64,000 nucleotides of DNA from Patescibacteria group bacterium (GTDB taxonomy: Bacteria > Patescibacteriota > Doudnabacteria > UBA920): NCBI GenBank assembly GCA_036726225.1, contig DAIMCS010000002.1:123743-187742 (forward strand), written 5' to 3'. Every line of letters begins with the position of its first letter. Position 1 is the stretch's first letter. The notes under the pieces were generated by a model. That model was not told the origin of the DNA, did not search any database, and saw only the letters and a list, made by a program, of their open reading frames with translations. Shown piece by piece: positions 14,937 through 39,252 of this stretch. The translations under genes and the position numbers were made by a program.

Positions 14937-14945
14937 TTAATTTAT

Positions 14946-16034: not shown

Positions 16035-16050
16035 CAGATCTCTCGCTCCG

Positions 16051-16070: not shown

Positions 16071-16089
16071 CTCGAGATGGAAAAGAAAT

Positions 16090-16124: not shown

Positions 16125-16141
16125 ATAAGAGCCCCGGCGGG

Positions 16142-16357: not shown

Positions 16358-16412
16358 GAGTGAACCTCCTTATATTAGAAGAAATATATAACCTAAGTTT
16401 GTTTAAGTCAAT

Positions 16413-17273
16413 ATGGATCTTTCAATAATAATTCTTTCATATAAATCCAAAGAGCACCTCCAGGTGCTTTTGCCGAGTGTTTTTAATTCGACCAAAAAAT
16501 ATTCGTACGAAGTAATAGTGGTAGATAACGATTCGGGCGACGGAACGGCAGAAGCCGTTGAAAGTTTACTTCCTTCTATCCCTAATTTGAGGCTAATACG
16601 AAACCAAAACACGGGCTTTGCGGCCGGAAATAATTTAGGGATAAAGCAGGCAAAAGGTAAATATATTTTGTTGCTTAACCCTGACACCAAAGTTGAGCGC
16701 GATACTTTTGAAACAATGCTGGATATGATGGAGAACCGGCCTGAAGTGGGGATGTCCGGCTGTAAAATAATAAAACCCGACGGTACTTTAGATTTAGCTT
16801 GCCGCCGCCGTTTCCCAAACCCGTGGAATAGTTTTAAAACTTTATTTTTAGGCAGCAGGAAAAATTATAATTATAGCGATGTTGATGAAAACCAAGAAAT
16901 GGAAGTCGACAGCGTAGTTGGAGCGTTTTTGCTTATCCGAAAATCTGTAATAGAAAGAATTGGCTTGCTGGACGAAAGTTTTTTTATGTACGGGGAAGAT
17001 TTAGACTGGGCTTACCGCTGCCAGCGTAACGGATTTAAAGTATGGTATTACCCAAAAACTTTTATTACCCACTATAAGGGCGCTTCGTCTGCCAAAGCGC
17101 CGTTTAAAGCTTTAAAGTGGTTCCACGACGCTATGTGGATTTTTTACAAAAAACATTATGCCCGAAAATATGTTTTCGCCTTTAACTGGCTGGTGTTTTT
17201 AGGAATATATTTTAGGCTTTTAGTTTTAACTTTGGTTAATTTTTTTAAAAAGAAGCCTGTTGTGAGCCGTTAA
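16413..17273 (+). CDS. Family 2 glycosyltransferase
   Basis: LSIIILSYKSKEHL...VVDNDSGDGT...NPDT GT-A motifs. Confidence 0.85.
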   Translation: MDLSIIILSYKSKEHLQVLLPSVFNSTKKYSYEVIVVDNDSGDGTAEAVESLLPSIPNLRLIRNQNTGFAAGNNLGIKQAKGKYILLLNPDTKVERDTFETMLDMMENRPEVGMSGCKIIKPDGTLDLACRRRFPNPWNSFKTLFLGSRKNYNYSDVDENQEMEVDSVVGAFLLIRKSVIERIGLLDESFFMYGEDLDWAYRCQRNGFKVWYYPKTFITHYKGASSAKAPFKALKWFHDAMWIFYKKHYARKYVFAFNWLVFLGIYFRLLVLTLVNFFKKKPVVSR

Positions 17274-18605: not shown

Positions 18606-18702
18606 TTGATCAAGATTTAAAAGAGTTAAATGATTGACATGATTAAGACGCAGGCTATTCTTGTCACTCTTGATCAATCTTGTCATTCATGTCAATTAAT
18701 TT
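18604..18702 (+). repeat. Intergenic repeat-family element (TTGATCAA / TTGACA-rich) directly abutting the alaS start codon
   Basis: Shares the motifs tgatcaagattt, gattgaca, cttgatcaatctt, catgtcaat with copies at 24748-24844, 25790-25907 and 31114-31196. Confidence 0.7.
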
Positions 18703-21212: not shown

Positions 21213-22396
21213 AACTTGAATTTTACAATTGTCCTCAACCCGAAAATATGGATTCCCGCCTGCGCGGGAATGGGGTTTCGATTTTGCCTGAAGCGCCGGA
21301 GTTTTTAACGTACAAACCGGATTTTGAAGGTATGAAAAAGATTGCGGATGGCTATGCTAATTATCAAAACATCCTAATTCTTGCGCACGGAGGCAGCCTT
21401 ACATCTTTTTATGGTTTTTATAATGCATTCTTAGAGCAAACCAAGAAGAAGGTTTATTTTTTAAACACAGTTGACCCGGATTATATTTTTGAGCTCAAGC
21501 AAAAGCTTATGCCGACAAACACGGTTGTGGTTGCAATTAGCAAGTCAGGAGAAAACACAACCCAACTCGAAATGTTAATGCAGTTTTTAGACTACCCGCT
21601 CATTATAGTTACCGGTAAAAGCAGTCCGCTTAGGGCAGTGGGGGAAAAAATAGGCGCAAAAATTGTAACTCACCCCCCAATTGGCGGCCGCTATACCGGC
21701 TTTACCGAAGTTGCGTTGCTGCCGGCTGCTATGTGCGGTCTGGACGTGCGCGGGTTTGAGGAAGGCGCGAAAGAATTTTATAAATTCTACCAAAAAGACA
21801 ATTTAGCCTGGAAAGCCGCGTCGGTTTTGTACCAGCTGGAGCAAAAAGGTTATGTAGATGTGTTTATGCCTTTTTACACGCATTATCTATTTTTTATGAG
21901 CAATATAATTGTCCAGCTTTGCCATGAGTCGTTTGGAAAGGAGGGGAAAGGCCAGACCTATTTTGCCCACGAGGCGCCCGAGTCCCAGCACCATACCAAT
22001 CAGAGGTTCTTTGGCGGACCCAAAAATATTTGCGGATTTTTTATTGGCGTGGAAAATTTTAACCATCCAACCCAAAATAATTTTCCTCTAGGCACACATA
22101 GCGTACAGCTAAAAGGCCATTCCCTTTTTGACATAAATAAAATTCCGTTGGAAAAGGCTTTGGAGTTTGAGCTGCAAGGCACAATGGAGGACGCCCGTAT
22201 TTACGGCATTCCTTTAATTCGTCTTTCCGTAACCAGTTTTACTGCTTTTGAAATTGGCCAGTTTTTGGCTTTTTGGCAGCTGTTTGCTGTCTACTCATCT
22301 GTGCTAAGGGGAGTGGACCCTTTTGACCAGCCGCAGGTGGAAAACAGCAAGAACATTAGCTTTAATAAAAGGCTAGGATATAAGGGGCTGCTTTAA
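21209..22396 (+). CDS. pgi: Glucose-6-phosphate isomerase, short SIS-domain type
   Basis: SIS/PGI motif VVAISKSGENTTQLE; 395 aa. Confidence 0.7.
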   Translation: MKLEFYNCPQPENMDSRLRGNGVSILPEAPEFLTYKPDFEGMKKIADGYANYQNILILAHGGSLTSFYGFYNAFLEQTKKKVYFLNTVDPDYIFELKQKLMPTNTVVVAISKSGENTTQLEMLMQFLDYPLIIVTGKSSPLRAVGEKIGAKIVTHPPIGGRYTGFTEVALLPAAMCGLDVRGFEEGAKEFYKFYQKDNLAWKAASVLYQLEQKGYVDVFMPFYTHYLFFMSNIIVQLCHESFGKEGKGQTYFAHEAPESQHHTNQRFFGGPKNICGFFIGVENFNHPTQNNFPLGTHSVQLKGHSLFDINKIPLEKALEFELQGTMEDARIYGIPLIRLSVTSFTAFEIGQFLAFWQLFAVYSSVLRGVDPFDQPQVENSKNISFNKRLGYKGLL

Positions 22397-22406
22397 TGCT
22401 GGAATT

Positions 22407-22482
22407 CGTATAAGGTATTAGGTATAATGTATAAAGTATAAGGCATCAGACCCCCTTATACTTTATACGGCATACCTTATAC
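22407..22482. repeat. ~76-bp imperfect palindromic element; its left arm (30 nt) recurs in frame inside pepN at 46371-46400
   Basis: cgtataaggtattaggtataatgtataaagtataagg ... ccttatactttatacggcataccttatac. Confidence 0.8.
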
Positions 22483-22489
22483 TTTCTAA

Positions 22490-24550: not shown

Positions 24551-24630
24551 GACGGTTTAACCGCAAATAAGTATATAAGCCAGTAAACAACTTACTCACT
24601 TATTTACTTACTCACTTATTTACTTATTTT

Positions 24631-24744
24631 ATGAAAGTTAGAGCTTCAGTAAAACCTATGTGCAAGAAATGCAAAATCGTCAGACGGTTCGGACGCGTTT
24701 ATATTATTTGTTCCAATCCTAAACATAAGCAGCGACAAGGATAA
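24631..24744 (+). CDS. rpmJ: 50S ribosomal protein L36 (37 aa; not in ORF track because it is below the 60-aa cut-off)
   Basis: Translation [37 protein letters not shown], a textbook L36 with zinc-ribbon Cys/His. Confidence 0.9.
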
Positions 24745-24747: not shown

Positions 24748-24844
24748 ATTGACCAAGATTAAGTAAGATTTAAAAGATTGAACAAGAATGTAATGGCAAT
24801 CATGTCAATCTTGGTCAATCCTGATCAATCATTTAAATTCACCT
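24748..24844 (+). repeat. Intergenic repeat-family element abutting the rpsM start (copy B)
   Basis: Nearly identical to 25790-25907 except for the 20-bp palindrome insertion in that copy. The 3' 45 nt (aatcatgtcaatcttggtcaatcctgatcaatcatttaaattca) are identical in both. Confidence 0.85.
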
Positions 24845-25234: not shown

Positions 25235-25315
25235 CGCTTCCGGCGCAGTAAAAAGTGACAAGTTGAAAGTAAAAAGTACTTTTAACTTTACACTTTCAAC
25301 TTTTAACTATATTTT

Positions 25316-25786
25316 ATGGCTGAAGAAAATATTACAACCGAAGAGGTAACCCAAGAAACTCCGGCAACTGCCGAAGCTGTTTCTCCTGTGGTTGAGGCTT
25401 CTGCAAAAATTAAGTCCAAGAAAAAGAAAAGCAAAGCCAAAATTACCAAAGGCAAAATTTACATTAACTCCACTTATAACAACACAATTGTCAGCCTTAC
25501 AGATATGGTTGGAAATGTACTTGTTTGGAGCTCGGCCGGTAAAATTGGTTTTAAAGGTTCAAAGAAATCCACTCCGTACGCCGGACAAAGAACCATGGAA
25601 GACGTGCTTGCCAAACTTCGTGAACGCGGACTTTCGGAGCTCGATGTTTTAATTAAAGGTATTGGCTCAGGCAGAGAATCTGCTATTAGGGCGCTTCAAG
25701 GCAGCGGATTAAATATTTTGTCTATTAAAGACCAGACCCCAATTCCTCACGGTGGCGTAAGGCCAAAGAAACCGAGACGAGTGTAA
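25316..25786 (+). CDS. rpsK: 30S ribosomal protein S11 with Lys/Ala-rich N-terminal extension
   Basis: IYINSTYNNTIVSLTDMVGNVLVWSSAGKIGFKGSKKSTPYAGQ. Confidence 0.92.
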   Translation: MAEENITTEEVTQETPATAEAVSPVVEASAKIKSKKKKSKAKITKGKIYINSTYNNTIVSLTDMVGNVLVWSSAGKIGFKGSKKSTPYAGQRTMEDVLAKLRERGLSELDVLIKGIGSGRESAIRALQGSGLNILSIKDQTPIPHGGVRPKKPRRV

Positions 25787-25789
25787 GTT

Positions 25790-25907
25790 AATTGAACAAG
25801 ATTAAGTAAGATTTACCTGCCTGCCGGCAGGCAGGAATGATTGAACAAGAGTGTACAGACAATCATGTCAATCTTGGTCAATCCTGATCAATCATTTAAA
25901 TTCATTT
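25790..25907 (+). repeat. Intergenic repeat-family element abutting the rpsD start (copy C), carrying a nested CCTGCCTGCCGGCAGGCAGG palindrome at 25816-25835
   Basis: Alignment by eye to copy B shows a clean 20-bp insertion. Confidence 0.85.
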
Positions 25908-26516: not shown

Positions 26517-26646
26517 ATTCGAAGTAAGAAATTCGAAATCCGAAAAATACAGAATTTCAAAAATTTAAATATTTATACATTAGAATTTAATAAGTGTTTC
26601 GAATTTCGATATTCGAATTTCGATATTAATTTGGAGGTCAAATTTT

Positions 26647-27585: not shown

Positions 27586-27666
27586 CAGATACACACTAAT
27601 TGAATCAGCGGATGAACACGGATCAGTGTTAATCCGTAAATATCAGCGTTTATTAGTTTTACTTAT

Positions 27667-29168: not shown

Positions 29169-29512
29169 TGCTTTAAGCAAACTCGTAAGCCGAATTCTGT
29201 TTCTAAATAATCATCTATCTGGTCACGTTATTGCTAACGTGATCAAGCAACCTACCTAATTTGGTCTTGCACTCAAGTAAGGATTTGGCCGTTTCACCTT
29301 TAATGTTTCCATCAAAGCTAATCTCTTGCGAGATCCTTGGCGTCTTTCGTACCAAGCGTCTCTGTTCGCACCTCTAGGATTACTCCCGACGGGAATTACC
29401 CGCTACCAGTTTTGATAACTCATATGAGGCTATCAAATAAGTGTTCGGACTTTCCTCCCCAACCGGCATCTTGCGATGCCAATTAAAGCGATTATTCGGT
29501 TTGCTTAAAGCC
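29169..29512 (-). ncRNA. rnpB: RNase P RNA, bacterial type A
   Basis: The minus-strand reading contains GGGGAGGAAAGTCCG (P4 / CR-I), AAAGGTGAAACGGCC (GGUGAAA region) and ACAGAATTCGGCTTACGAG (ACAGAAnCCGGCUUA, CR-V). The P1 stem is gctttaagcaaac / gtttgcttaaagc. Length ~344 nt. Confidence 0.85.
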
Positions 29513-29533
29513 TAAAAAGTTTAACAAAAATAG

Positions 29534-29656
29534 TTGTTTTTGTCAAGGGAAAATGGTATAATAACTACAGAAAATTTTTGAAACACTACAGATAACTACA
29601 GAAAAATAAGCCAGTTACTTCTGTAGTCATCTGTAGATTTTTTTAGCTTCTGTAGT
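29534..29656 (+). promoter_or_regulatory. Promoter (TTGTCA ... extended -10 TGgTATAAT) followed by an array of CTACAGA / TCTGTAG direct and inverted repeats upstream of the initiating glycosyltransferase
   Basis: ggtataataactacagaaaatttttgaaacactacagataactacagaaaaataagccagttacttctgtagtcatctgtagatttttttagcttctgtagtttATG: three CTACAGA then three TCTGTAG. Confidence 0.6.
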
Positions 29657-29658
29657 TT

Positions 29659-31113
29659 ATGAAAAAAACCGAGCTTATTTTTAACCTTATTTCAATTGGT
29701 TTTGACGCTGTTTTTCTGCTCCTGGCGGGGATCGCGTCTTTTTATTTGAGGCAGACGAATTTTGCCACCAGGATAGTCGGCCACCCTGTAAGTTACGATT
29801 TGCAATTTCAGCAATTTATTTCTTCGGCTTACTCCGTGCTTCCGGTTTTGCTTTTAATTTTCGCGGCTTTAGGGCTGTATAATTTAAAAGGTACCCGAAA
29901 GTTTTCTTCCGAAATTGGGAGAATTATGGTCGGCACTTCGCTTAGCTTGCTGCTCATTATTTTAATTTTCTTTTTTAACACCAATTTTTTTGAGGACATA
30001 TTCCCTTCCAGGTTTATAATTCTTGCTGCCTGGGCTTTGGGGACATTGTTTGTCATTTTTGGCAGAACGCTTTTAAAACAGCTGCAAGTGTTAACGTTTA
30101 AAAATAATATAGGTTTGCATAAGTTGGTAATTATAAACGGCGGTCCCGAGCTCGACGTTATTGAAAGTATTTTGAAAAAAAAGGAACATGGTTATGAAAT
30201 TACCGGCGAATTCGCTTTTTCTGAAAATATTTTTGAGCAGCTGGAAAAATTGTATGAAGAAGGCAGGGTGGATGAAATTTTACAGGGCAATTCCAACTTG
30301 AATGACTCTGCAAATTTAAAATTGGTGCAATTTGCGCGTGACAAAGGCTTAAAATTCAGCTTTGTGCCCAATTTGTTTGAGGTGCAAAGAAACATTATTG
30401 AAACTGACAATTTAGACGGTATTCCGCTTATCAGTTTAAAAAATACTCCATTGGACGGCTGGGGCAAAGTGGTAAAGAGAATTATGGATATTATTTTAAG
30501 CGCGGTATGTCTTATTGCTACGTCGCCAATATTTTTAATTGTTTCCGTTCTAATTAAGTTCGATTCGGCCGGTAAAGTTATTTATTCTGCCGTTCGCGGC
30601 GGGCGCGGCAAAAATTTTAAGTTTTACAAATTCAGGAGTATGTACAGCCATTTAAGCATTGGCGAGGACTACGGCGGCCGGCAGGCGGAACAACTTAGAG
30701 AGCAGCTTTGGGAAAAAAATGACCGTGGCGGCAAAGAAGGGCCGTTTTTAAAAATTAAAGACGACCCTCGTGTGACTAAAATTGGCCGTTTTTTGCGCAG
30801 GACCAAACTGGACGAAATCCCGCAGTTTTGGAACGTGTTTGTGGGGGATATGAGTATGGTGGGCCCCAGGGCGCACGTGTTAGATGAGGTCGACAGGTAC
30901 AGGAACCGCTACCCCAGAATGTTTAGCATTAAGCCCGGGACTTTTGGGCTTTCACAAATTGCGCAAATGAACTGGCCGGATTTGCCGTTTGAGGAAGAAA
31001 TTAGGCTGAACACTTTTTATATTGAGAACTGGTCGCTGTGGCTGGATGTAAAAATTTTAGCAAAAAGTTTTTGGCAGCTGTTTTTTGGAAAAAAGCCCAA
31101 GGCAAACTATTAG
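29659..31113 (+). CDS. Undecaprenyl-phosphate hexose-1-phosphate transferase (WbaP/WcaJ-like 'bacterial sugar transferase')
   Basis: N-terminal TM bundle plus C-terminal catalytic domain with IMDIILSAVCLIATSPIFLIV...KFRSM...KDDPRVTKIGRFLRRTKLDEIPQFWNVFVGDMSMVGPR. Confidence 0.85.
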   Translation: MKKTELIFNLISIGFDAVFLLLAGIASFYLRQTNFATRIVGHPVSYDLQFQQFISSAYSVLPVLLLIFAALGLYNLKGTRKFSSEIGRIMVGTSLSLLLIILIFFFNTNFFEDIFPSRFIILAAWALGTLFVIFGRTLLKQLQVLTFKNNIGLHKLVIINGGPELDVIESILKKKEHGYEITGEFAFSENIFEQLEKLYEEGRVDEILQGNSNLNDSANLKLVQFARDKGLKFSFVPNLFEVQRNIIETDNLDGIPLISLKNTPLDGWGKVVKRIMDIILSAVCLIATSPIFLIVSVLIKFDSAGKVIYSAVRGGRGKNFKFYKFRSMYSHLSIGEDYGGRQAEQLREQLWEKNDRGGKEGPFLKIKDDPRVTKIGRFLRRTKLDEIPQFWNVFVGDMSMVGPRAHVLDEVDRYRNRYPRMFSIKPGTFGLSQIAQMNWPDLPFEEEIRLNTFYIENWSLWLDVKILAKSFWQLFFGKKPKANY

Positions 31114-31196
31114 AGTGAACAAGATTGATCAAGATTGACAAGAATGTCATCTAAAATCATGTCAATCTTTTAAATCTTATTTATTCTTGGTCAATT
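31114..31196 (+). repeat. Intergenic repeat-family element abutting the GT4 start (copy D)
   Basis: agtgaacaagattgatcaagattgacaagaatgtcatctaaaatcatgtcaatctt...cttggtcaattATG. Confidence 0.7.
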
Positions 31197-32270
31197 ATGA
31201 GGATCGCATTAGCACATGATTCCCTTACTCAAATGGGCGGGGCGGAAAGAGTGGTAGATGCATTACACGAACTTTTTCCAAACGCGCCTGTTTTTACATT
31301 GGTCTTTGACCCAAAGTTTAAAGAAAAGTATAAAGATTGGGACATTCAAACTTCACCACTACAGTCGCTGTACTTGGTTTTAGGAAAACTGCAATATTGT
31401 TTGCCGCTAATCCCGTGGGCGGTGGACCAGCTAAACTTTAGCGGCTACGATTTAGTTATTTCCTCCAGCTCGGGTTTTGTAAAAAATATCCGTGTGCCAA
31501 AAAATTGTGTGCATATAAATTATTGTCACACCCCAACCAGATTTTTGTGGAGCGATAACGATTATGTCAAACAGGAAGTAAATTTTTTCCTAAGGCCTTT
31601 TGTAAAAGTTTTTTTATCTAAAATGCGGAAGTGGGATTTAATTGGCGCCAAAAGGGTAACGCATTTTATTGCCAATTCAAAAGAAGTCCAGGATAGAATC
31701 CAAAAATATTATCAGCGTACTAGTACGCTGATATACCCGTTTGTGGATTCAAAATTTTGGAATTCGACAACGCCTAAGGGCGATTACTTCTTACTTGCAG
31801 GCAGGCTACATCCCCATAAAAAAAATGACCTTATTGTGGAAGTTTTTAATGACCTAAATATCCCGCTCCACGTTGTGGGTACAGGGAGGCAAGAGGGTTA
31901 TTTGAAGTCGATTGCTAAGCAAAATATTAGCTTTTTGGGCAGAATAAGCGACGAAGCGCTTAGGGATGAGTATAGCGCTGCTTTAGGGTTTATTTACCCA
32001 CAAATTGAAGATTTTGGCCTTATGCCACTGGAAGCCGCCGGCTGCGGCACAGCCACACTGGCTTACGGTGAGGGCGGCGCTAAAGAGACTGTTCTGCCCG
32101 GGGTAACCGGGGAGCTGTTTGACTCTTACAATGAGGAGAAAATTAAGCAGATGGTTTTGTCTTGGGATGCAAAAAAATATCGAACGGATGACTTAAAAAA
32201 CCAGGCAGAGAAATTTAGTAAAGAAAAATTTAAAAGTGAAATGTTAAATTTTGTAAAATCCCATGTCTGA
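31197..32270 (+). CDS. Family 4 glycosyltransferase; contains the 22-bp palindrome ATCAGCGTACTAGTACGCTGAT at 31720-31741
   Basis: GT-B C-terminal motif LAGRLHPHKKNDL...EDFGLMPLEAAGCGTATLAYGEGGAKETV. Confidence 0.85.
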   Translation: MRIALAHDSLTQMGGAERVVDALHELFPNAPVFTLVFDPKFKEKYKDWDIQTSPLQSLYLVLGKLQYCLPLIPWAVDQLNFSGYDLVISSSSGFVKNIRVPKNCVHINYCHTPTRFLWSDNDYVKQEVNFFLRPFVKVFLSKMRKWDLIGAKRVTHFIANSKEVQDRIQKYYQRTSTLIYPFVDSKFWNSTTPKGDYFLLAGRLHPHKKNDLIVEVFNDLNIPLHVVGTGRQEGYLKSIAKQNISFLGRISDEALRDEYSAALGFIYPQIEDFGLMPLEAAGCGTATLAYGEGGAKETVLPGVTGELFDSYNEEKIKQMVLSWDAKKYRTDDLKNQAEKFSKEKFKSEMLNFVKSHV

Positions 32271-33417
32271 AAACATACCCCAAAAAGGCGGGCCTGCCTC
32301 CGGCAGAAAAATTGCTATTGATTTAAGGAGTCTGTCTTCAGGCCGGGTTTCGGGGGTGGAAAATTACTGTTTGAATCTGCTGGAGAGTATGCCGCCGCTG
32401 GATAATCGCAACCAATATACATTTTTTTACAACTCACTGCGCAGACGCAAACTGCCCGATTTTCATTTTGTTAATTCCACCGTCCGCCATAGTCATATCC
32501 CCAACAAAATTTTAAATTTGGCATTAAAGTTAAACCTTACCAAGCTGGAAAATTTTATAGGAGAAACAGATTGGATTTTTATGCCTAATTTAAACCAATT
32601 TTCAATATATCCCAAATCCAAACTTGCCGTAACTGTTCACGACCTTTCGCCGGTTATGGCACCTGAATTCTATAATGTAAAAAGGAGGCTGTGGCATAAA
32701 TTTTTAAACTATAAAAAAGCTTTGGAAAGGGCGGATATTATTTTTACCGTGTCGGAATATACAAAAAACGATCTTATAAAAATTTTTAGTGTTCCCGCCG
32801 AAAAAATTAAAGTTGTTTACCCGGGGGTAAGCCACAAAGCTTTTCATCCGAACCTGCCGGAAAATTATTTAAGGGAAGTTAGAAATTTGTACAGTTTGCC
32901 CGGAAAATTTATTTTATTTTTAAACACAGTTGAGCCCAGGAAAAATTTAGGCACACTCGTTAAAGCTTTTGAAAAATTGCAGGACTCGACTAATTTGGTC
33001 GTGGCCGGAAGGCTTGGATGGAAGTATCGGGCAGATTTTAAGTTAATAAATAACAGCAGGAAATTGAACAAAATAAAATATATTGGCTACGTACAAGAGC
33101 AACATAAGCCCGCGCTTATTAAACTTGCTTCTGCTTTGGTTTACCCTTCGTTTTATGAAGGTTTTGGTTTCCAGTTACTTGAAGCCATGGCTGTGGGTAC
33201 ACCTGTGGTTGCCAGTCAGTTAACTTCTATTCCCGAGGTTACGGGTGATGCAGCATTGCTAGTTAACCCTTATGATGAAAATAGTTTAGCTGAAGCTTTG
33301 AGCGAAGTTTTAAATAATGAGGGCTTGAGGCAGGCATTGGTCGCTAAGGGAATTAGGCGGGCACAGCATTTCAACTGGCAAAAAACCGCCACAGGGATAT
33401 TGGGAGGATTGAAATAA
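32263..33417 (+). CDS. Family 4 glycosyltransferase
   Basis: EGFGFQLLEAMAVGTPVVASQLTSIPEVTGDAALLVNP. Confidence 0.88.
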   Translation: MSENIPQKGGPASGRKIAIDLRSLSSGRVSGVENYCLNLLESMPPLDNRNQYTFFYNSLRRRKLPDFHFVNSTVRHSHIPNKILNLALKLNLTKLENFIGETDWIFMPNLNQFSIYPKSKLAVTVHDLSPVMAPEFYNVKRRLWHKFLNYKKALERADIIFTVSEYTKNDLIKIFSVPAEKIKVVYPGVSHKAFHPNLPENYLREVRNLYSLPGKFILFLNTVEPRKNLGTLVKAFEKLQDSTNLVVAGRLGWKYRADFKLINNSRKLNKIKYIGYVQEQHKPALIKLASALVYPSFYEGFGFQLLEAMAVGTPVVASQLTSIPEVTGDAALLVNPYDENSLAEALSEVLNNEGLRQALVAKGIRRAQHFNWQKTATGILGGLK

Positions 33418-33418
33418 T

Positions 33419-34603
33419 ATGAATAATTACACGCTCTCCAAAGGCCGGTCCCTGCCTGTCCGGCAGGCAGGCGCCTTCGGCAGAAAAATCGGCTTAGATT
33501 TAAGGCTATTTGGCACAGCTCACGGGGGCATTGGCAGGTACTGCGAACAGCTTTTCCCGCGGCTTTTAAAATTGGACAAAGCAAACCAATATTTTGCCTT
33601 TGTGAATTCCAAAATGCTTCACACAGGCGCTTTAAAAGCGCTGGAAAGTTTGAATAACTGCAAAATTGTGGAAACAAATGCCAGGCATTATTCTTTTGGC
33701 GAGCAGCTAAGCTTTTTAAGGCTGTTAAATAAATATAAATTGGATTTAGTCCATTTCCCGAATTTTAATATGCCGATTTTCTACAAACGCCCGTTTGTAG
33801 TTACTATCCATGACATGGTTCACCATAAAATTAGCGGTGCAAAAAAAAGTCATCTGCTGCATTTTTTAGCCTATAAAAAAGTAATTGAGACCGCGGGCAG
33901 GCAGTCAAAAAAAATTATCACAGTATCCCAGGCTTCCAAAAAAGACATAAGCAATTTTTTGCAAATTCCCAATGACAAAATCGAGGTAATTTACGAAGCC
34001 GCATCTTTAAGTCCCCAAATCCAGGCCGCAAAAGTTTTAGAAATAAAAAAGAGCTACCTTTTAAGCAGCCCGTATTTTTTGTTTGTCGGGGTATTGGAAC
34101 GCAAGAAAAATTTAATTAATTTAACCAGGGGGTTTGACTATTTTTTACAAAAATATAAATTGAAAATGGACCTGGTTTTGGTCGGAAAAAAAGATCCGCA
34201 CTACCCGGACATTAAGCATAAGGCTATGGACATTAAGCATAAAGACAACTTAGTTTTTGCAGACCAGGTGGATGATGAAGAATTGGCAGCTCTCTATAGC
34301 GGGGCTTATGCTTTTACCTCGGCTTCTTTACATGAAGGCTTTGGCTTGCCCGGGGTAGAGGCTTTGAGTTTTGGTTTGCCGCTGCTTGCTTCTAATATTG
34401 AAGTTTTTAATGAAATCTATGACAACGCTGCTATGTATTTTAACCCGCTTGACCCGGCCGATATAGCTGAAAAAATGAACCTGCTGGCAAGGGACAAACA
34501 ATTTTACGAACAAATGAGCAAGAAAAGTTTAGAAAGGGCTCAAAAGTTTGGCTGGGACGAGGCAGCTGCGGCCACTTTAGAAGTATACAAACAAATTTTA
34601 TGA
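33419..34603 (+). CDS. Family 4 glycosyltransferase with an in-frame palindrome insertion near the N-terminus
   Basis: EGFGLPGVEALSFGLPLLASNIEVFNEIY. The N-terminus aligns to the upstream paralog (GRKIaIDLR) except for the extra LPVRQAGA encoded by cctgcctgtccggcaggcagg. Confidence 0.88.
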   Translation: MNNYTLSKGRSLPVRQAGAFGRKIGLDLRLFGTAHGGIGRYCEQLFPRLLKLDKANQYFAFVNSKMLHTGALKALESLNNCKIVETNARHYSFGEQLSFLRLLNKYKLDLVHFPNFNMPIFYKRPFVVTIHDMVHHKISGAKKSHLLHFLAYKKVIETAGRQSKKIITVSQASKKDISNFLQIPNDKIEVIYEAASLSPQIQAAKVLEIKKSYLLSSPYFLFVGVLERKKNLINLTRGFDYFLQKYKLKMDLVLVGKKDPHYPDIKHKAMDIKHKDNLVFADQVDDEELAALYSGAYAFTSASLHEGFGLPGVEALSFGLPLLASNIEVFNEIYDNAAMYFNPLDPADIAEKMNLLARDKQFYEQMSKKSLERAQKFGWDEAAAATLEVYKQIL

Positions 34604-35694
34604 AGATATTACTTGTGGGCGGCGGAAGCGGCGGGCCGGTTGCACCGCTATTGGCCGTTGCCCGGGCAATAAAAAAGAATCATCAAAAAACCGACTTTTT
34701 ACTGGTGGGGGGCAAGAGTGGCCCCGAAAAACTTATGGCGCAAAATGCGGGGCTTGCTTTTGAAGCTATTAATGCAGGCAAACTAAGGCGCTATTTTTCC
34801 CTTAAAAATTTTGGCTCACCCTTTTTAACTTTAGCCGGTTTTATCCAAAGCCTGAAAATTTTAAAAAAGTTTAAGCCTGACTGCGTTTTTGGCACGGGCA
34901 GCTTTATTCAAGTCCCCATGGTTTGGGCTGCGGGGCTTTTAAACATTCCGGTAGTCTTACACCAGCAGGATGTCGCACCGAGTCTGGCAAACAGGTTATG
35001 CCAGCTTATGGCAAAAAAAATTACGGTCAGCTTTGAGTCCAGCTTAAAGGATTTTGCTTCATCTTTAGGTGTTTTTTACAAGAAAAATCAGGATAAAGTT
35101 ATTTTAACCGGCAATCCCTTTAGGGAAGAACTAAAAGAAGGCAGCAGGCAACAGGGACTTAAGATTTTTAATCTAAAAAGCGATTTGCCGACTTTGCTGG
35201 TTTTAGGAGGCGGCACCGGGGCAGAGTTTATTAACGAATTAATAAAAGGATGTCTACCGAAGCTTTCTAAAAGCGTGCAAATTATCCACTCAACCGGTGC
35301 GGGCAAACAGACTTTGGAAGAGAGCGAGAATTACCACCCTTTTGAGTTTATAAAAGATATGGGAGAGGCTTATGCTGTAGCTGATATTGTTTTGGCCAGG
35401 GCAGGACTTTCCACCTTAGCTGAATTGTCAAACCTTAAGAAAGTAAGTATAATAATCCCCATACCGCAAAGCCACCAGGAAATAAATGCGCTGTATTTGG
35501 CGCACACCCAGGCAGCCATTACGCTTAACCAAAACCGCACAACCCCAAACGGCTTTACCGCACTTATTAGGAAATTATTGTTTGCTCACGATTTTTTGGA
35601 AGTGCTTAAAGAGAATATTGAAAAAGTAATGCCCCATAATTCCGGCGAGATGATTGCGGAGATAATTGTGAAGGAATCATTAAAAGATGGATAA
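34600..35694 (+). CDS. murG: GT28 family glycosyltransferase, MurG-like
   Basis: MKILLVGGGSGGPVAPLLAVARAI N-terminal glycine loop; C-terminal GGGTGAEFINELI. It sits between the GT4 cluster and murC/murB, so the substrate (lipid I or another acceptor) is not certain. Confidence 0.65.
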   Translation: MKILLVGGGSGGPVAPLLAVARAIKKNHQKTDFLLVGGKSGPEKLMAQNAGLAFEAINAGKLRRYFSLKNFGSPFLTLAGFIQSLKILKKFKPDCVFGTGSFIQVPMVWAAGLLNIPVVLHQQDVAPSLANRLCQLMAKKITVSFESSLKDFASSLGVFYKKNQDKVILTGNPFREELKEGSRQQGLKIFNLKSDLPTLLVLGGGTGAEFINELIKGCLPKLSKSVQIIHSTGAGKQTLEESENYHPFEFIKDMGEAYAVADIVLARAGLSTLAELSNLKKVSIIIPIPQSHQEINALYLAHTQAAITLNQNRTTPNGFTALIRKLLFAHDFLEVLKENIEKVMPHNSGEMIAEIIVKESLKDG

Positions 35695-36679
35695 TTTAAA
35701 CAGACCAAAATTGGGTTTGGCTTTAAGCGGCGCGGCTGCAAGGTCAGTTTTCTACATAGGTTTTTTGGAAGTCCTGCAGGAAAACCAAATCCACATAGAT
35801 TACATTTCCGCCAACTCCGGCGCGTGCATAGTGGCCGCGGCTTTTGCCTGCGGGACACTTTCCGAGCTAAAAGAAAAAGCACTTTCTATGGATAAAGAGT
35901 TTTTATTTTCCATAATCCAAAGAAGCAAAGACAAGGGCGGCCTTTACAGTATGGATAAAGTGGAGGAGGCTTTCCAAAAATACACCAAAGGTATGAATTT
36001 TGAGCAGGTCAGGCCGCTAATGGGTTTTACCTGCACTAATATTAACAGCGGCGAGGAAATTATTTTAACTATGGGCGACATTGCTAAAGCCATTTCGGCT
36101 TCCTGCGCGCTACCCGGAATTTTTAAACCTGTGCGCTGGGGACAGTGGGACTTGGTAGACGGCGGTTTGGTAAGCATAGTGCCGGGCCACGCTGCCAGGA
36201 CAGCGGGCTGTGACGCGGTTATTGGCATTTATGTTTCGCCAAAAGAGCGGGTGTTTAACAATTTTGAAATCGCTATTAAAAAGACTGTGAATTTTTTTTA
36301 CAGGCTCTTCGGTTTTCACGGGGCAAGGCGTATGTTTAGGAGTTTTATGAGCGTTTTAGAAAAAAATAAATATTTTAGTTACTTTTATGACCTGGAAGAA
36401 GCAGAGCCAAAAACCTCCGGGATGTTTGAAATTTTAGGCAAGGCCATGGACATTGCCATAAAAGCCCAAAATAAACAGCACTTGCTGCCGCCAAATTTTG
36501 ATTGTGATTTTATAATAAGGCCCACTCTGCCCACGGAATCGGCGTTTAAACGTCTTTCTTATTTGTACTTGGCAGATTTTAGCGGTTCAAAGCGGCTTTA
36601 TGAGTTTGGCCGGCAAACCGCAACCAGCAGTTTGCCCAGGATAAAAAATTTGCTTTTAGAAAAATCTAAAGAACTTTAA
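35687..36679 (+). CDS. Patatin-like phospholipase family protein with non-canonical nucleophile motif
   Basis: LALSGAAARSVFYIGFLEVL (oxyanion-region analogue), DGGLVSIVP (Asp of dyad). The canonical GxSxG is replaced by SANSGAC. Confidence 0.55.
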   Translation: MDNLNRPKLGLALSGAAARSVFYIGFLEVLQENQIHIDYISANSGACIVAAAFACGTLSELKEKALSMDKEFLFSIIQRSKDKGGLYSMDKVEEAFQKYTKGMNFEQVRPLMGFTCTNINSGEEIILTMGDIAKAISASCALPGIFKPVRWGQWDLVDGGLVSIVPGHAARTAGCDAVIGIYVSPKERVFNNFEIAIKKTVNFFYRLFGFHGARRMFRSFMSVLEKNKYFSYFYDLEEAEPKTSGMFEILGKAMDIAIKAQNKQHLLPPNFDCDFIIRPTLPTESAFKRLSYLYLADFSGSKRLYEFGRQTATSSLPRIKNLLLEKSKEL

Positions 36680-36683
36680 ATGT

Positions 36684-38135
36684 ATGCTGGAAACCGACCT
36701 GGAAAATATACTTTCAAAAGACGCCGCTAAAATTTATTTTGTCGGCATTGGCGGCATTGCTATGTCGGCCGCGGCAAACATTGCCGCTTCTTTTGGCTAT
36801 GAAATACAAGGTTCGGACAGCAAAGAAATTTACTCGCCTGCCAAGGACGTATTGGATGATTCTAAAATAAGTTATTTTAAAAGTTATTCCGAAGAAAACG
36901 TAAAAAATAGCAACGCAGATTTATTTGTGCTTTCTGCCGGGGAAGATTTAAACAATCCGGAAGTTAAATATATAGAAAAAAATAAATTACCTCACTTAGG
37001 CTTTCCCGAACTCATTTATTTTTTAACCAGGGATAAGCTAAGAGTGGTGGCCACGGGTACCCACGGCAAATCTACCACTACCGGCCTGCTCGGGCATATT
37101 TTTAAAAATCTAGACGACAGCTCCTTTATGGCCGGCGCTGTGCTGCAGAATTATTCCAGCAACTTTCATTTGGGCGTGGGCAACTATTTTGTCATTGAAG
37201 GCGACGAGTACAAGTCCGAATACGACGACCCCACGCCCAAATTCCATTATTACAAGGCTGACATTTTAGTTTTAACCAATTTGGAATATGACCACCCGGA
37301 CCTCTTCCCAAACTTTAAAGCCCTGGAAGATGAATTCCGCCACCTTATTGCCAATATGCCGCAAGACGGTCTAATTGTTTATAATGCCGACGATGTTAAT
37401 TTAAGCCGCCTGGTGCACGAGTCCAACGTCAGCAGCGCAAGTTATGGCATTGACAATGAGGCGGATTTTAGGGCAGAGCAAATTCAGTACGGGGAAGAGT
37501 TTACGACTATTGAAGTAATAAATAAATTTTCAAAAAATATTTCCAGCAAACTTTTGGGGCAAACTGAACAGTACAAAATTCAGCTGCCCGGAAAAATAAA
37601 CGTCTACAACGCGCTCGCGGCCATTGCGACGCTTCGTTCCTTAGGGTTTGCCCAGGACCAAATTGCCCTGGATTTACTTATTTATAAAGGCGTTAAAAGG
37701 CGTTTTGAAATTGTGGCAGTCAAAAAGGGGATTACAATTGTGGACGATTACGCCCATCACCCAACCGCAGTCAGGGAAACCCTTAACGCCGCGCGTTTAA
37801 AATTTCCAAAGTCAAAAATTTGGGCAATTTTTGAGCCACATACTTTTAGCCGCACAGAGGCAACATTGGAAGATTTAACCAAAAGCTTTGAAGGGGCCGA
37901 TGAAGTCTTAATTTCAGATATTTACCCGGCAAGAGAAAAGAAAACTAAGTCGTCAGTAACATCAGAACAAGTGGTGGAAGCGGTTAAACAAAACGCAAAA
38001 AATGCCAGGCTCATTCACAACAAAAAAGAAGCTTTGGAAATTTTGAAAAATGAAGTTAAGCCGGGCGAAGCCGTAATTATAATGGCCGTGGGCGATTTTA
38101 ACCGTTTGGCTTACGATTTAAAGGATATATTATAG
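36684..38135 (+). CDS. murC: UDP-N-acetylmuramate--L-alanine ligase
   Basis: KIYFVGIGGIAMSAAANIA, VATGTHGKSTTTGLL. Confidence 0.9.
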   Translation: MLETDLENILSKDAAKIYFVGIGGIAMSAAANIAASFGYEIQGSDSKEIYSPAKDVLDDSKISYFKSYSEENVKNSNADLFVLSAGEDLNNPEVKYIEKNKLPHLGFPELIYFLTRDKLRVVATGTHGKSTTTGLLGHIFKNLDDSSFMAGAVLQNYSSNFHLGVGNYFVIEGDEYKSEYDDPTPKFHYYKADILVLTNLEYDHPDLFPNFKALEDEFRHLIANMPQDGLIVYNADDVNLSRLVHESNVSSASYGIDNEADFRAEQIQYGEEFTTIEVINKFSKNISSKLLGQTEQYKIQLPGKINVYNALAAIATLRSLGFAQDQIALDLLIYKGVKRRFEIVAVKKGITIVDDYAHHPTAVRETLNAARLKFPKSKIWAIFEPHTFSRTEATLEDLTKSFEGADEVLISDIYPAREKKTKSSVTSEQVVEAVKQNAKNARLIHNKKEALEILKNEVKPGEAVIIMAVGDFNRLAYDLKDIL

Positions 38136-38136
38136 A

Positions 38137-39252
38137 ATGAAAATCCAGGAAAACGTTTTGCTAGCTCCATACACCACTTTTAAAATCGGCGGGCCGGCGA
38201 AGTTTTTTTGCATTGTAAACGACCAGTTCGATGCGCTTTCGGCCTATGACTTTGCGGACAAAAATCGGCTTAAAACCTTAGTTTTGGGCGGCGGAAGCAA
38301 TGTGTTAATTAGTGACAAAGGTTTTGACGGGCTTGTTTTAAAGGTGGAGAACAAGGGCATTGAAATTTTGTTTCAAAATGAAAATTTTGTAACCTTAAAA
38401 GTTGCTTCCGGTGAAAATTGGGATGAAGTTGTAAAATTTGCGGTAAAAAATAACTGGTGGGGGATTGAAAATCTTTCCCACATTCCCGGCTCCAGCGGGG
38501 CCATTGCCGTACAAAATGTTGGCGCTTACGGACAGGAAGCTAAAAATGTAATTGAATCGGTTGTGGTTTTTAACAAAGCCACTCACGAAATACAAAATTT
38601 GCAAACTCAAGATTGCCACTTTGCTTACCGCTCCAGTATTTTTAACGCCAGCCGCAAAGGTAATTTTATTATTTTTTATATTGTTTTTAAATTGTCCAAG
38701 ATGGCAAAACCTATTTTGTCTTACCGTGATCTGAAAAAGTACTTTCAGCTTTCAGAAACCCTCTCTGCCCCGGCTGTGCCGGGGCATCTCCCCCAAAAGG
38801 GGGAGAATAATAATGTATTATCGCTTGAAAAAATTCGCGAGGCGATAATCTATATACGTGACAAAAAATTCCCCTTTCCCACAGAGGCAAAAAAAGGGAA
38901 TGCCGGGTCATTTTTTAAGAATCCTGTTTTAAGTAAAGAACAATATAACGTGCTTAAAGAAACTCTTGATGTAAATTTTGGCACTCAAAAAGTTGCGGAG
39001 CTGGAAACAAAGCAATTTGTGGAAGAGGAAAAAATTAAAGTTCCGGCCGCTTTTTTAATAGACCTTTGCGGCTTAAAAGATCTGCAAGTCGGAGGCGCAG
39101 CAATTAACGCAAACCAGCCTTTGGTAATTGTAAATGAAAGCGGCACTGCGAGCGCACAAGACGTGCTTAGTTTGGCAAACAGGGTAAAAGCAGAGGTTAA
39201 AAATAAAACCGGTATTGAACTAATGTTTGAACCGGAGTTGATTGGTTTTTAA
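38137..39252 (+). CDS. murB: UDP-N-acetylenolpyruvoylglucosamine reductase carrying an in-frame twin-hairpin insertion
   Basis: FAD-binding N-terminus TTFKIGGPAKFFCIV...LVLGGGSNVLISDKGFDG. Insert ...APAVPGHLPQKGENNNV... at 38767-38815. Confidence 0.88.
   Translation: MKIQENVLLAPYTTFKIGGPAKFFCIVNDQFDALSAYDFADKNRLKTLVLGGGSNVLISDKGFDGLVLKVENKGIEILFQNENFVTLKVASGENWDEVVKFAVKNNWWGIENLSHIPGSSGAIAVQNVGAYGQEAKNVIESVVVFNKATHEIQNLQTQDCHFAYRSSIFNASRKGNFIIFYIVFKLSKMAKPILSYRDLKKYFQLSETLSAPAVPGHLPQKGENNNVLSLEKIREAIIYIRDKKFPFPTEAKKGNAGSFFKNPVLSKEQYNVLKETLDVNFGTQKVAELETKQFVEEEKIKVPAAFLIDLCGLKDLQVGGAAINANQPLVIVNESGTASAQDVLSLANRVKAEVKNKTGIELMFEPELIGF
38767..38815. repeat. Twin-hairpin mini-element (gccccggctgtgccggggc + tctcccccaaaagggggaga + ATAATAATG) in frame inside murB
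   Basis: Same architecture at 49744-49795 (upstream of secD) and single G5/C5 hairpins at 46849-46869 (in pepN) and 52264-52291 (secF terminator). Confidence 0.75.

Follow-up and report, generated by a model that had tools for sequence, protein, structure and literature searches.

The window analysed here is a 64-kb stretch of a Doudnabacteria genome, and the feature under study is an array of short repeats in the leader of a gene for a polyprenyl-phosphate glycosyl-phosphotransferase of the WbaP/large PGT type. This gene heads a glycosyltransferase/Mur cluster, in which it is followed by three GT4 genes and by genes for GT28, a patatin, a MurC-like protein and MurB. Upstream of the array, and divergent from the transferase gene, lies rnpB, which is transcribed away from the array. 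The features to which we refer below, with the six units of the array named L1 to L3 and R1 to R3, are these:

29170-29507, minus strand: RNase P RNA gene of bacterial class A (rnpB), full-length (Rfam RF00010, 122.2 bits against a gathering score of 100)
29518-29546, minus strand: rnpB promoter, with -35 TTGACA at 29546-29541, a 17-nt spacer and -10 TAAACT at 29523-29518 (promoter scan, 10/12 matches)
29534-29562, plus strand: putative transferase promoter, read from the sequence, with a possible -35 TTGTTT at 29534-39, a 17-nt spacer with TG, and an extended -10 box TGGTATAAT at 29554-62
29563-29657, plus strand: whole imperfect palindrome, or fold-back module (inverted repeats I1, I7 and I8; RNA fold)
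29565-29571, plus strand: unit L1, CTACAGA (extended form AACTACAGAA, 29563-72), overlapping the predicted transcription start
29586-29592, plus strand: unit L2, CTACAGA (exact search, inverted repeats)
29596-29602, plus strand: unit L3, CTACAGA (extended form AACTACAGAA, 29594-603; exact search, inverted repeats)
29603-29619, plus strand: apical loop region, from the fold; not conserved in the related locus L086
29620-29626, plus strand: unit R1, TCTGTAG (within TCTGTAGTCATCTGT, identical in L086 and L059)
29630-29636, plus strand: unit R2, TCTGTAG (exact search, inverted repeats)
29638-29644, plus strand: run of seven T directly behind the inner hairpin, a terminator-like tail read from the sequence and missed by the terminator scan
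29649-29655, plus strand: unit R3, TCTGTAG (extended form TTCTGTAGTT, 29648-57), 3 nt upstream of the ATG
29659-31113, plus strand: glycosyl-phosphotransferase gene (Pfam Bac_transf, 4.6e-55; CoA_binding_3, 4.5e-9)
31114-31196, plus strand: spacer between the transferase and GT4 genes, a second fold-back module with another unit (AAGATT/AATCTT, TTGAnCAAGA-type; fold -19.5 kcal/mol, z = -2.5)

The rnpB and transferase promoters overlap back to back. TTGTCA (29540-45), which figured in the original prediction, corresponds to the reverse complement of the rnpB -35 box, and the plus-strand hexamer at 17-nt spacing is TTGTTT; the TTGTCAA block is kept in orthologous loci that have rnpB upstream. 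For comparison we used ~70 transferase orthologues and 75 species-representative genomes. The extended -10 box is conserved across the orthologues: TGnTATAAT lies upstream of nearly all of the ~70, mostly 6-12 nt from the ATG. In the window, transcription is predicted from the promoter sequence to start at about 29567-29571, inside unit L1.

An exact search recovered three plus-strand copies of CTACAGA followed by three of its complement TCTGTAG, and the inverted repeats arrange them as the nested palindromes that had been described at this locus; the sequence and the Pfam assignment likewise bear out their placement, which is downstream of an extended -10 promoter and ahead of a WbaP-like gene. 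Together the six copies form an imperfect palindrome of 95 bp, with its symmetry centre at ~29611 and a start-to-start unit spacing of 21, 10, (24), 10 and 19. The array spans exactly the interval from -10 box to ATG, beginning 2 nt past the one and ending 3 nt short of the other; an array-less junction would read TATAATAA joined directly to TTTATG. The true repeat unit is ~10 nt long, as AACTACAGAA, present at both L1 and L3, is perfectly complementary to TTCTGTAGTT at R3, and the terminal inverted repeats of the palindrome thus match at 10/10 positions (inverted repeat I7). ATAACTACAGAAAA is present in two identical copies, complementarity between the inner arms (29581-603 and 29619-41) is 87% along 23 nt, and a 21-bp tandem duplication takes in the -10 region (repeat family D2). 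The window holds nine copies of the heptamer against 2.48 +/- 1.68 expected, and at least nine were reached in none of 100 shuffles; the three copies outside the array are singletons (375, 13575 and 61152), which is the chance level for the window. The leader is 100% identical in six contigs of the same species from different metagenomes.

As RNA, the palindrome is predicted to fold at -33.3 kcal/mol (z = -6.66), and none of 200 shuffles was equally stable; folded from the predicted transcription start, the leader still gives z = -3.0. The predicted helices are an inner one of 18 bp that pairs L2L3 with R1R2 with one mismatch, and an outer one of up to 6-10 bp that pairs L1 with R3. Against a hairpin reading, a start at ~29569 would leave most of L1 outside the RNA and reduce the outer helix to 4-6 bp. 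The base of the hairpin lies near the predicted 5' end, and its other end just ahead of the start codon. No Rfam 15 family reached its gathering score for the leader, rnpB being the sole feature of the window to do so, an E-value threshold gave the leader no family either, and on both strands of 29480-29760 the Rfam matches were sub-threshold generic hairpins only. RNAalifold applied to four inner hairpins (the window, L086, L059 and L015) returned seven invariant pairs, in an alignment in which MAFFT had misaligned L015. By hand, 6/8 of the 5'-arm deviations in L086 and L015 are wobble-compatible; L099 and the window add A-C or other mismatches.

We found that the leader is patchily distributed among relatives. 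In about half of the ~70 orthologues the -10 box lies 6-12 nt from the ATG, and these genes look as if they are transcribed leaderless. Long leaders (48-115 nt) are dispersed over the tree and consist mostly of hairpins or repeat arrays with units of their own (L015, L076, L029, L011 and L009). Of the roughly equidistant relatives (70-76% identity), L086 has the array, as the window does, L007 and L166 have none, and in L167 a TCAGCG array takes its place. The original prediction had made conservation of the leader in relatives a test of its reading, and the outcome is mixed, leaning to the negative: L086 alone keeps the heptamer, the closest relative, L007 (76% protein identity), has neither array nor leader, and most other orthologues have no leader either. 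The exact heptamer occurs at the orthologous promoter in none of the 75 species-representative genomes, and a related ATCTGTG is carried by the transferase leaders of L015, L037 and L017. The homologous leader of L086 is predicted to form a stronger hairpin (-45.2 kcal/mol, z = -7.8); between it and the window the 3' arm is identical at 18/18 positions and the 5' arm at 17/20, and the loop and outer spacers are unalignable. The window, L086 and L059 share one and the same 3' arm, TCTGTAGTCATCTGT, and every deviation falls in the 5' arms. In L037, L017, L097-L100 and L167 the arrays are mostly in one orientation and abut the ATG.

The array is one member of a class of spacers, which we define as stretches of 70-130 nt in which n direct units are followed by a loop and the same number of inverted ones, folding far better than shuffles, starting a few nt from a -10 box or stop codon and finishing a few nt from an ATG. 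The CTACAGA array belongs to this class, with 3 + 3 units, a start 2 nt past the -10 box, an end 3 nt before the ATG and z = -6.7. The class is phylum-wide in Doudnabacteria, where modules of 70-130 nt, each with its own unit, stand in place of spacers of 0-30 nt, and is apparently undescribed; in the literature on promoters, leaderless genes and intergenic repeats of CPR/Patescibacteria and on Doudnabacteria, only the papers on TAACTGA repeats and on TIGR-Tas cited below proved relevant. Within the window, three or more copies of one 7-mer occur in 5 of 35 intergenic gaps; among 175 coding controls the figure is 3. Strict arrays number 46 in 166 kb of intergenic DNA from Doudnabacteria, where 0.8 were expected, at ~16 times the density of coding DNA, and in 18 of the 46 at least two inverted partners lie no more than 100 nt away. 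Conserved ribosomal-protein genes are separated by spacers with a bimodal length distribution; of the long ones inspected, most consist of direct and then inverted units. Among 199 long co-directional spacers, 67% fold at z < -2 (median z -3.1), and the outermost helix starts a median of 5 nt past the stop codon and ends a median of 11 nt before the start codon; class modules in general start 1-8 nt past a stop codon or -10 box and stop a few nt short of the ATG.

Equivalent arrays with other units occupy housekeeping spacers (rpoA, rpsK, rpmJ, rplQ, alaS), both in the window and across the phylum. One orthologous spacer holds at least ten unrelated unit families in different species, no two of five L076 spacers use the same unit, and ~10 core families recur across the phylum. 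In the TACGAA family, the one resolved best, the complementarity of the arms exceeds the shared core, the order is nested and two perfect 15-bp helices result; such nested complementarity beyond the core indicates a true hairpin or palindrome and not a cluster of sites. Across the class, the commonest unit spacings are 8 and 10 nt rather than 10.5-11. The sense strand folded better than the antisense in 3 strict palindromic arrays and the antisense in 8, with 20 G-U pairs against 19, and the corresponding counts for the 199 spacers were 112 and 86. As sense and antisense fold about equally well, the folds give no specific sign that the sense RNA is under selection.

With moderate confidence, we read the array as a fold-back spacer module whose transcript forms a hairpin in the 5' UTR and which would act through its structure. 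The bases of this reading are the palindrome with its strong predicted fold, which persists when folding begins at the predicted start; the stronger hairpin of L086, whose helices are kept while loop and spacers diverge; the scattering of long leaders with units of their own among orthologues of which about half have a short gap; and the statistics of the class, that is, the excess of strict arrays, the bimodal spacers and the high proportion of long spacers with stable folds. Transcription would start within L1, and the 5' UTR would fold into a long hairpin with an inner L2L3/R1R2 helix and an outer L1/R3 helix. The base of this hairpin would set the mRNA 5' end beside the AUG, and the AUG and the A-rich first codons would stay unpaired. 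We infer from this that the module would act at the RNA level and could affect expression by way of a paired 5' end and the accessibility of the start region, perhaps with some termination at the U7 tract, and that it would not serve as a sequence-specific operator for a regulator of polysaccharide genes. However, a hairpin function accounts neither for the repetition of one unit within each arm nor for an invariant 3' arm TCTGTAGTCATCTGT with deviations confined to the 5' arms.

The proposal from which the work started is a regulator-binding array controlling the polysaccharide operon. Spelled out further, such an array would have its six heptamers bound on a single helical face by a sequence-specific protein such as an OmpR/PhoB-type response regulator or one of the ribbon-helix-helix kind; this protein would block initiation at L1, form a roadblock to transcription of the leader and thereby regulate the envelope-polysaccharide operon. 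The position of L1 stands up, as it lies over the predicted transcription start, 2 nt past the -10 box, a classic place for an operator; the spacings of 21, 10, 10 and 19 bp come close to whole numbers of helical turns, and cores are kept and spacers vary between the window and L086, just as the TCAGCG arrays combine an 11-12-11 spacing pattern with free spacer sequence. An ATCTGT(A/G) core recurs in the leader of the next gene in L059, in the rplM-rpsI spacer of L037 and in the transferase leaders of L015, L037 and L017, and clusters of it number 6 in 1.36 Mb as against 0-2 in shuffles. That only ~10 core families recur phylum-wide, and that sense and antisense folds show no asymmetry, as for a DNA-level feature, are also in keeping with an operator, and a sequence-specific reader fits the one-orientation arrays at the ATG better than does a hairpin. 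The binding array itself fares poorly, however. The original prediction had looked to further copies of the heptamer in the genome, but 74 kb (the window and a further 10 kb) contain no second CTACAGA array, and near-matches to the 10-mer in the window are not clustered. Pfam analysis of the 50 larger ORFs found no transcription-factor gene in the window, apart from a protein with Sigma70_r4 and HARE-HTH domains at 52445-53530, 23 kb away. Equivalent arrays fill the stop-to-start spacer between co-directional ribosomal-protein genes, which form conserved operons in other bacteria. The ten or more unrelated units at one orthologous spacer and the five units of L076 tell against a binding site, as do the class-wide spacing peaks, the nested complementarity that reaches past the cores and the lack of an array in the closest relative. 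On this evidence, read from sequence as the proposal itself was, we regard a DNA operator array as improbable.

A second alternative is that the palindrome is neutral or selfish, having arisen by local duplication and template switching or as a MITE-like fold-back insertion, and is merely tolerated, since its folding keeps it from interfering, with no selected function at the transferase gene. The patchiness among roughly equidistant relatives would fit this, as would the bimodal spacer lengths, which are those expected of discrete insertions of ~70-110 bp, the perfect 10-bp terminal inverted repeats and the 21-bp tandem duplication. Families also change site: TACGAA occupies the spacer between the transferase and GT4 genes in L014, L017 and L035, whereas L076 has it between rplQ and rplM, and the ACAGAT family lies at different sites in L059 and the window. 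The helices are near-perfect Watson-Crick with no strand asymmetry, as in palindromes that are young or corrected at the DNA level. Of the marks of a MITE or fold-back element, however, only the terminal inverted repeats are present: the module ends show no target-site duplication (flanks ..TATAAT and TATG..), 74 kb of the genome contain no other copy, and none of the larger predicted proteins of the window that were scanned is a transposase. BLAST of this and six other modules from the window against 1.1 Mb of Doudnabacteria loci gave short core matches only, and a scan of viral contigs with the 16-mer TCTGTAGTCATCTGTA gave 28 matches, by estimate about the number expected by chance. Between the window and L086 the arms differ little or not at all, but loop and spacers can no longer be aligned, a pattern that suggests constraint if the two are orthologous; we consider the neutral or selfish origin unlikely, if still a serious competitor. 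Much less plausible is a transcription attenuator, in which the inner hairpin (29586-29636) and the U7 tract (29638-44) would form an intrinsic terminator, with read-through set by alternative pairing or by a factor that binds the units. An 18-bp stem with one mismatch is followed by A and then U7, L015 has the same layout with U5, and the redundant units permit other pairings (L3 with R3, a perfect 10 bp; the L2 flank with R3-AUG, 15/18). An intrinsic terminator typically has a G+C-rich stem of 5-11 bp and a small loop ahead of its U tract. The terminator scan makes no call on this A+U-rich stem with its 15-nt loop, the U tract is missing from L086, the best homologue, and from most modules of the class, no upstream anti-terminator segment is complementary to the 5' arm, and no known attenuator or riboswitch family matches.

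As for the class as a whole, Doudnabacteria, and perhaps other CPR, may possess an undescribed phylum-wide system of fold-back spacer elements that turn leaderless or tightly coupled junctions into structured junctions of ~90 nt, a suggestion that we make only tentatively. The arms of the palindromes would be arrays of one short unit, with about ten unit families shared across species and fast turnover at orthologous spacers. The elements would be either a new small mobile or self-propagating kind or a lineage-specific organiser of transcript 5' ends and intercistronic junctions; as organisers, in a host lineage largely without Shine-Dalgarno sequences, they might keep a 5' end or stop codon beside the next start codon, or mark sites of RNase processing. 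Among these elements would be the CTACAGA array, for which a factor recognising the invariant 3' arm is a possible reader. Control of gene expression in CPR is little known, with tiny genomes, few regulators and no cultured member of the host lineage. Here a gene for envelope glycan synthesis that looks leaderless in most species has a hairpin leader of 95 nt built of repeats in some, and modules of the same kind fill the spacers of ribosomal-protein clusters across the phylum. A symmetric repeat cluster near a promoter need not, therefore, be annotated as an operator, and if the modules turn out to move or to be needed for a function, they would constitute a new class of small genomic element.

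Several known systems resemble the array in part. Operator arrays of response regulators and ribbon-helix-helix proteins resemble it in having direct and inverted copies of a short core at intervals of ~10-11 bp about a promoter: Pho boxes are 7-bp direct repeats every 11 bp, and omega and ParR bind heptad or iteron arrays. There is a further parallel in Bacillus subtilis, where PhoP controls the teichuronic-acid operon, whose first gene, tuaA, encodes a putative initiating sugar transferase. The present array differs in lying wholly downstream of the -10 box and reaching the ATG, in lacking regulon copies or a regulator gene in what was searched, in having class relatives between ribosomal-protein genes and in a spacing that is not consistently helical. 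Other candidates were rejected at the level of the motif. The JUMPStart/ops element of polysaccharide operons, on which RfaH acts, has the core GGCGGTAG, which does not occur in the leader (29563-29658), and the half-sites of the LexA box CTGT-N8-ACAG occur here in the wrong order. An invertible promoter or shufflon is set aside by the single orientation in all six same-species contigs, and an upstream activator array for rnpB by relatives that have the same rnpB promoter and no array.

REP/BIME elements of proteobacteria are likewise imperfect palindromes in transcribed intergenic spacers, including those within operons, that can form RNA hairpins, and the unit contains GTAG/CTAC, the tetranucleotide conserved in REPs. 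REPs, in contrast, are units of 20-40 nt in tens to hundreds of near-identical copies and are linked to the RAYT transposase; here there is a single locus in 74 kb, no RAYT (TnpA-REP) gene is among the scanned ORFs of the window, the arms are built of sub-repeats and most modules have a unit of their own. The 5'-terminal stem-loops that stabilise bacterial mRNAs, and the leader hairpins that govern how accessible a start codon is, such as that of the ompA 5' UTR, also place a stable hairpin at or a few nt from the predicted 5' end and stop just before the start codon, but the array, at ~90 nt, is far longer, consists of repeated units and is not kept in most orthologues. TIGR arrays, from the TIGR-Tas RNA-guided systems of CPR and phages, are built from ~36-nt units that contain box C/D motifs and two spacers, adjacent to a tas gene with a Nop domain (bioRxiv 10.64898/2026.09.09.750476); the unit period here is 10-21 nt, there is no UGAUGA/CUGA motif and no Nop-domain protein is among those scanned in the window, and we rejected this candidate. 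A partial likeness is also seen to the direct repeats of the heptamer TAACTGA upstream of start codons in marine Beggiatoaceae, some Cyanobacteria and Bacteroidetes, for which a post-transcriptional role has been proposed (MacGregor 2015, PMC4679880). Both consist of 7-nt repeats in 2-6 copies, almost all intergenic, that end a few nt before a start codon without a Shine-Dalgarno sequence and precede unrelated genes, including ribosomal-protein genes, and the one-orientation arrays of Doudnabacteria face the gene as the TAACTGA sets do. TAACTGA, however, is one heptamer used genome-wide, in direct-repeat sets that are sometimes broken by a related 7-mer and have essentially no inverted partners, whereas the Doudnabacteria arrays comprise many unit families with spacers of 1-14 nt and usually include an inverted array, which yields a long palindrome.

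By the naming of its closest proteins and genomes, the organism is a Candidatus Doudnabacteria bacterium (Patescibacteria/CPR). The open reading frame at 29659-31113 has Bac_transf and CoA_binding_3 domains and therefore encodes a large polyprenyl-phosphate glycosyl-phosphotransferase. Downstream of this transferase gene come three GT4 genes, one GT28 (MurG-like) and one patatin gene, and beyond them MurC-like and MurB genes; rpoA, rplQ, rplM and rpsI lie upstream of the CTACAGA array on the plus strand. Because the gap between rpsI and the array contains a divergent RNase P RNA gene, the intergenic region is one of back-to-back promoters, with the following features:

29170-29507, minus strand: RNase P RNA (rnpB), 122 bits
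29546-29518, minus strand: rnpB promoter TTGACA-17-TAAACT, from a promoter scan
29554-62, plus strand: transferase-gene promoter, extended -10 box TGGTATAAT
29565, 29586 and 29596, plus strand: CTACAGA, by exact search
29620, 29630 and 29649, plus strand: TCTGTAG, the complement of CTACAGA, by exact search
29638-44, plus strand: U7 tract within the array

Both promoters fall within about 45 bp, and the plus-strand promoter has a spacer that overlaps the rnpB -35 box TTGACA; the TTGTCA named in the original prediction turns out to be the complement of this -35 box. Many Doudnabacteria have kept the block TTGTTTTTGTCAAG..TGGTATAAT, and transcription is predicted to start about 5-9 nt past the -10 box, at 29567-71, inside the first heptamer. 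Across the window, envelope genes on a single strand predominate (3965-17273, 29659-39252 and 58916-63995). The window also holds a second polysaccharide cluster (epimerase, GT2, flippase, cytidylyltransferase, GT4 and a Wzy-like protein), further envelope genes (Mur ligases, MurB, an MraY-like GT4 and FtsW), a DUF11 surface-type protein of 1092 aa (234-3512) and a TraG/VirD4-like ATPase (55033-56925).

The three CTACAGA and three TCTGTAG copies predicted in 29534-29656 were all recovered by exact search. Counting both orientations, the heptamer occurs nine times in the 64-kb window, compared with 2.5 +/- 1.7 expected (none of 100 shuffles reached nine); three of the nine lie outside the array, in line with chance. 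The repeat unit exceeds seven bases: AACTACAGAA (29563-72 and 29594-603) is the perfect complement of TTCTGTAGTT (29648-57), and ATAACTACAGAAAA has two identical occurrences. With inner arms (29581-603 and 29619-41) showing 87% complementarity across 23 nt, the whole spans 29563-29657 as an imperfect palindrome with its centre near 29611. Its predicted RNA fold has an energy of -33.3 kcal/mol (z = -6.7), a stability equalled in none of 200 shuffles. The leader sequence is identical across six same-species contigs from different metagenomes.

We compared leaders of orthologous transferase genes in Doudnabacteria (L-numbers denote individual loci): 79 from species-representative genomes, 80 from metagenomes (of which the gene start was usable in about 42) and two by exact-protein look-up. 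The motif TGnTATAAT is almost universal upstream of these genes and lies 6-12 nt from the ATG in about half of some 70, so that the mRNAs look leaderless or near-leaderless; leaders of at least 43 nt occur in about 22 orthologues, scattered across the protein tree. Close relatives are nearly equidistant from the window protein (70-76%). Distribution of the array is patchy: no array is present in the 22-nt leader of L007 (76% identity), the nearest neighbour in the protein tree, and the heptamer is found within 170 nt 5' of the gene in none of 75 genome loci, whereas the metagenomic L086 (73.6%) carries a module that is clearly homologous and keeps the CTACAGA-type unit. There, TATAAT is followed by TTACAGA, CTACAAA, CTACAGA and CTATAAA, a loop, and then TCTGTAG-tca-TCTGTAG, TCTGTAG, TTTGTAG and atttATG (-45.2 kcal/mol, z = -7.8). 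When the window is compared with L086, 18 of 18 positions are identical in the 3' inner arm and 17 of 20 in the 5' inner arm, while the loop and outer spacers are unalignable. Other leaders carry related or different units: TATAGA, CGCAGA and TACAGA, then three ATCTGTG and U5 in L015; ATCTGTG-type copies in a single orientation in L037 and L017; three CGCTGAA and three TT(C)AGCG in L076; and four to five (A/T)TCAGCG copies, spaced 11-12 nt apart and reaching the ATG, in L097-L100 and L167. Other strong hairpins occur in L029, L011 and L009. In L053 a contiguous TGCTAGT tandem repeat, interrupted by an N run in the assembly, directly abuts the -10 box of the transferase promoter; this uninterrupted heptamer repeat is of a different kind from the array.

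Short-unit arrays of the same design, direct then inverted and each with its own unit, were found in other spacers of the window:

5147-5186: GT2 gene at 5209, GCGGAA x3
22376-22489: spacer of ORF 22490 (unknown), TATAAGG x3 / CCTTATA x2
24560-24632: spacer of an rpmJ-like ORF, AAATAAG / CTTATTT x3
25235-25315: rpsK spacer, GTAAAAAGT / ACTTTTAAC (AAAAGT unit)
26517-26646: rpoA spacer, ATTCGAA / TTCGAAT
27586-27666: rplQ spacer, ATCAGCG unit
31114-31196: GT4 gene directly 3' of the transferase gene, AAGATT / AATCTT
53531-53641: spacer of ORF 53642 (unknown), TCAGCG x3 spaced by 11 and 12 nt

At least three non-overlapping copies of a 7-mer occur in five of 35 intergenic gaps (each P <= 0.013), compared with three of 175 size-matched coding segments. 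A TTGA(n)CAAGATT / AATCTTG(n)TCAA family occupies at least four window spacers (18607-18700, 24750-24835, 25785-25850 and 31114-31196) and has BLAST matches in other species (L015, L037); because its units contain -35-like TTGACA words, it may be promoter-associated or REP-like. A perfect G+C-rich hairpin, (G)CCTGCCTGCC-GGCAGGCAGG(C), has two spacer copies 10 kb apart (~16050-16072 and ~25816-25835) and may be a terminator-like or REP-like element.

We then surveyed 121 non-redundant Doudnabacteria loci (L007-L136, L166-L167) for strict arrays, defined as at least three exact 6-mers at a spacing of 8-14 nt. The 166 kb of intergenic DNA contain 46 such arrays compared with 0.8 expected, a density about 16 times that of coding DNA, and 18 of them have at least two inverted partners within 100 nt. 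Spacers between conserved neighbours (rpoA-rplQ, rplQ-rplM, rplM-rpsI, rpsK-rpsD, rpsD-rpoA and transferase-GT4) are bimodal in length, either up to about 30 nt or about 70-130 nt. Among the long spacers listed, the majority consist of direct units, a centre and inverted units. The modules start 1-8 nt past a stop codon or -10 box and end a few nt 5' of the next ATG; of the long co-directional spacers (n = 199), 67% have a fold at z < -2, the median being -3.1. Some ten core families reappear from species to species (TACGAA, ACAGAT, GAAATA, CGCGGA, CGCTGA, GATTGA/AAGATT, ACTAAA, TACAAA, AATATC and CCGAAT) yet shift between spacers. The CTACAGA array belongs to the ACAGAT family, which, as ACAGAT/ATCTGT, is also present in the L059 transferase-GT4 and L037 rplM-rpsI spacers; TACGAA occupies the transferase-GT4 spacer in L014, L017 and L035 and the rplQ-rplM spacer in L076. 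In the latter, near-identical arms form two perfect 15-bp helices, so that complementarity exceeds the shared core and follows a nested order. At least ten unit families occur in the transferase-GT4 spacer among species, and five spacers of the L076 genome have five different units. This pattern may stem from a mobile element, from local duplication and template switching, or from selection; it is more interesting than the CTACAGA locus alone.

We rate the array as a variant of kinds already known, namely structured leaders and intergenic elements made of palindromes or repeats. It lacks the full set of defining features of REP/BIME, MITEs, Pho-box or iteron operators, intrinsic terminators, Rfam families, TIGR arrays and JUMPStart/ops, and our literature search turned up no account of such arrays in CPR bacteria. 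Among published systems, the closest analogue comes from Beggiatoaceae, where TAACTGA heptamer repeats abut Shine-Dalgarno-less start codons (PMC4679880); unlike the Doudnabacteria modules, that system uses a single unit genome-wide with almost no inverted partners.

With moderate confidence, we read the array as one of these fold-back spacer modules (direct units, loop, inverted units) and not as a polysaccharide-regulator operator: transcribed from 29567-71, it would fold as a long 5'-UTR hairpin whose base would bring the 5' end beside the AUG. The AUG and A-rich first codons would be left open, compatible with Shine-Dalgarno-poor initiation, and the hairpin might protect the mRNA, tune initiation or merely be tolerated. 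Shine-Dalgarno-like 4-mers precede 18% of 1077 called genes, about chance by our estimate, so translation start in Doudnabacteria appears largely Shine-Dalgarno-independent. A structural role, probably at the RNA level, is favoured by the strength of the palindromes, by their exact placement between -10 box or stop codon and start codon, and by helices that the window and L086 have both kept while their loops have diverged. The two strands, sense and antisense, fold equally well and thus give no specific pointer to selection on the sense RNA. Repeated units, which a hairpin does not require, fit this reading poorly. So does the 3' arm TCTGTAGTCATCTGT (29620-29634), invariant in the window, L086 (~133-150) and a different spacer in L059 (7478-7493), with all four deviations from perfect pairing around it in 5' arms (L015 shares this bias; L099 reverses it).

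Two further misfits, the first unit lying over the predicted transcription start and the mostly one-orientation arrays abutting the ATG in some relatives, speak for a DNA operator with a sequence-specific reader. All these misfits, with the strand symmetry, keep the rival explanations alive, among them a neutral or selfish palindrome, which we consider unlikely. The operator seems to us distinctly unlikely: 74 kb of this genome contained no second CTACAGA array, the stray window copies being at chance level, no regulator gene was found in the window, and the same design is found between ribosomal-protein genes as well. Units also turn over at orthologous sites, and class-wide spacing peaks at 8 and 10 nt, not at the helical repeat. 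The operator idea of the original prediction is weak; its anatomy stands. A terminator-type attenuator built on the U7 tract is highly improbable, the tract not being conserved in L086.

The unit family that argues most strongly for a sequence-specific reader is (A/T)TCAGCG. Its units keep an 11-12-11-nt spacing with free spacer sequence and precede different genes in different species (window 53583-53611; transferase leaders of L076, L097-L100 and L167; L098 2149-2250; L099 4438-4522). In the window they lie 3' of a gene for a Sigma70_r4 and HARE-HTH protein (52445-53530).
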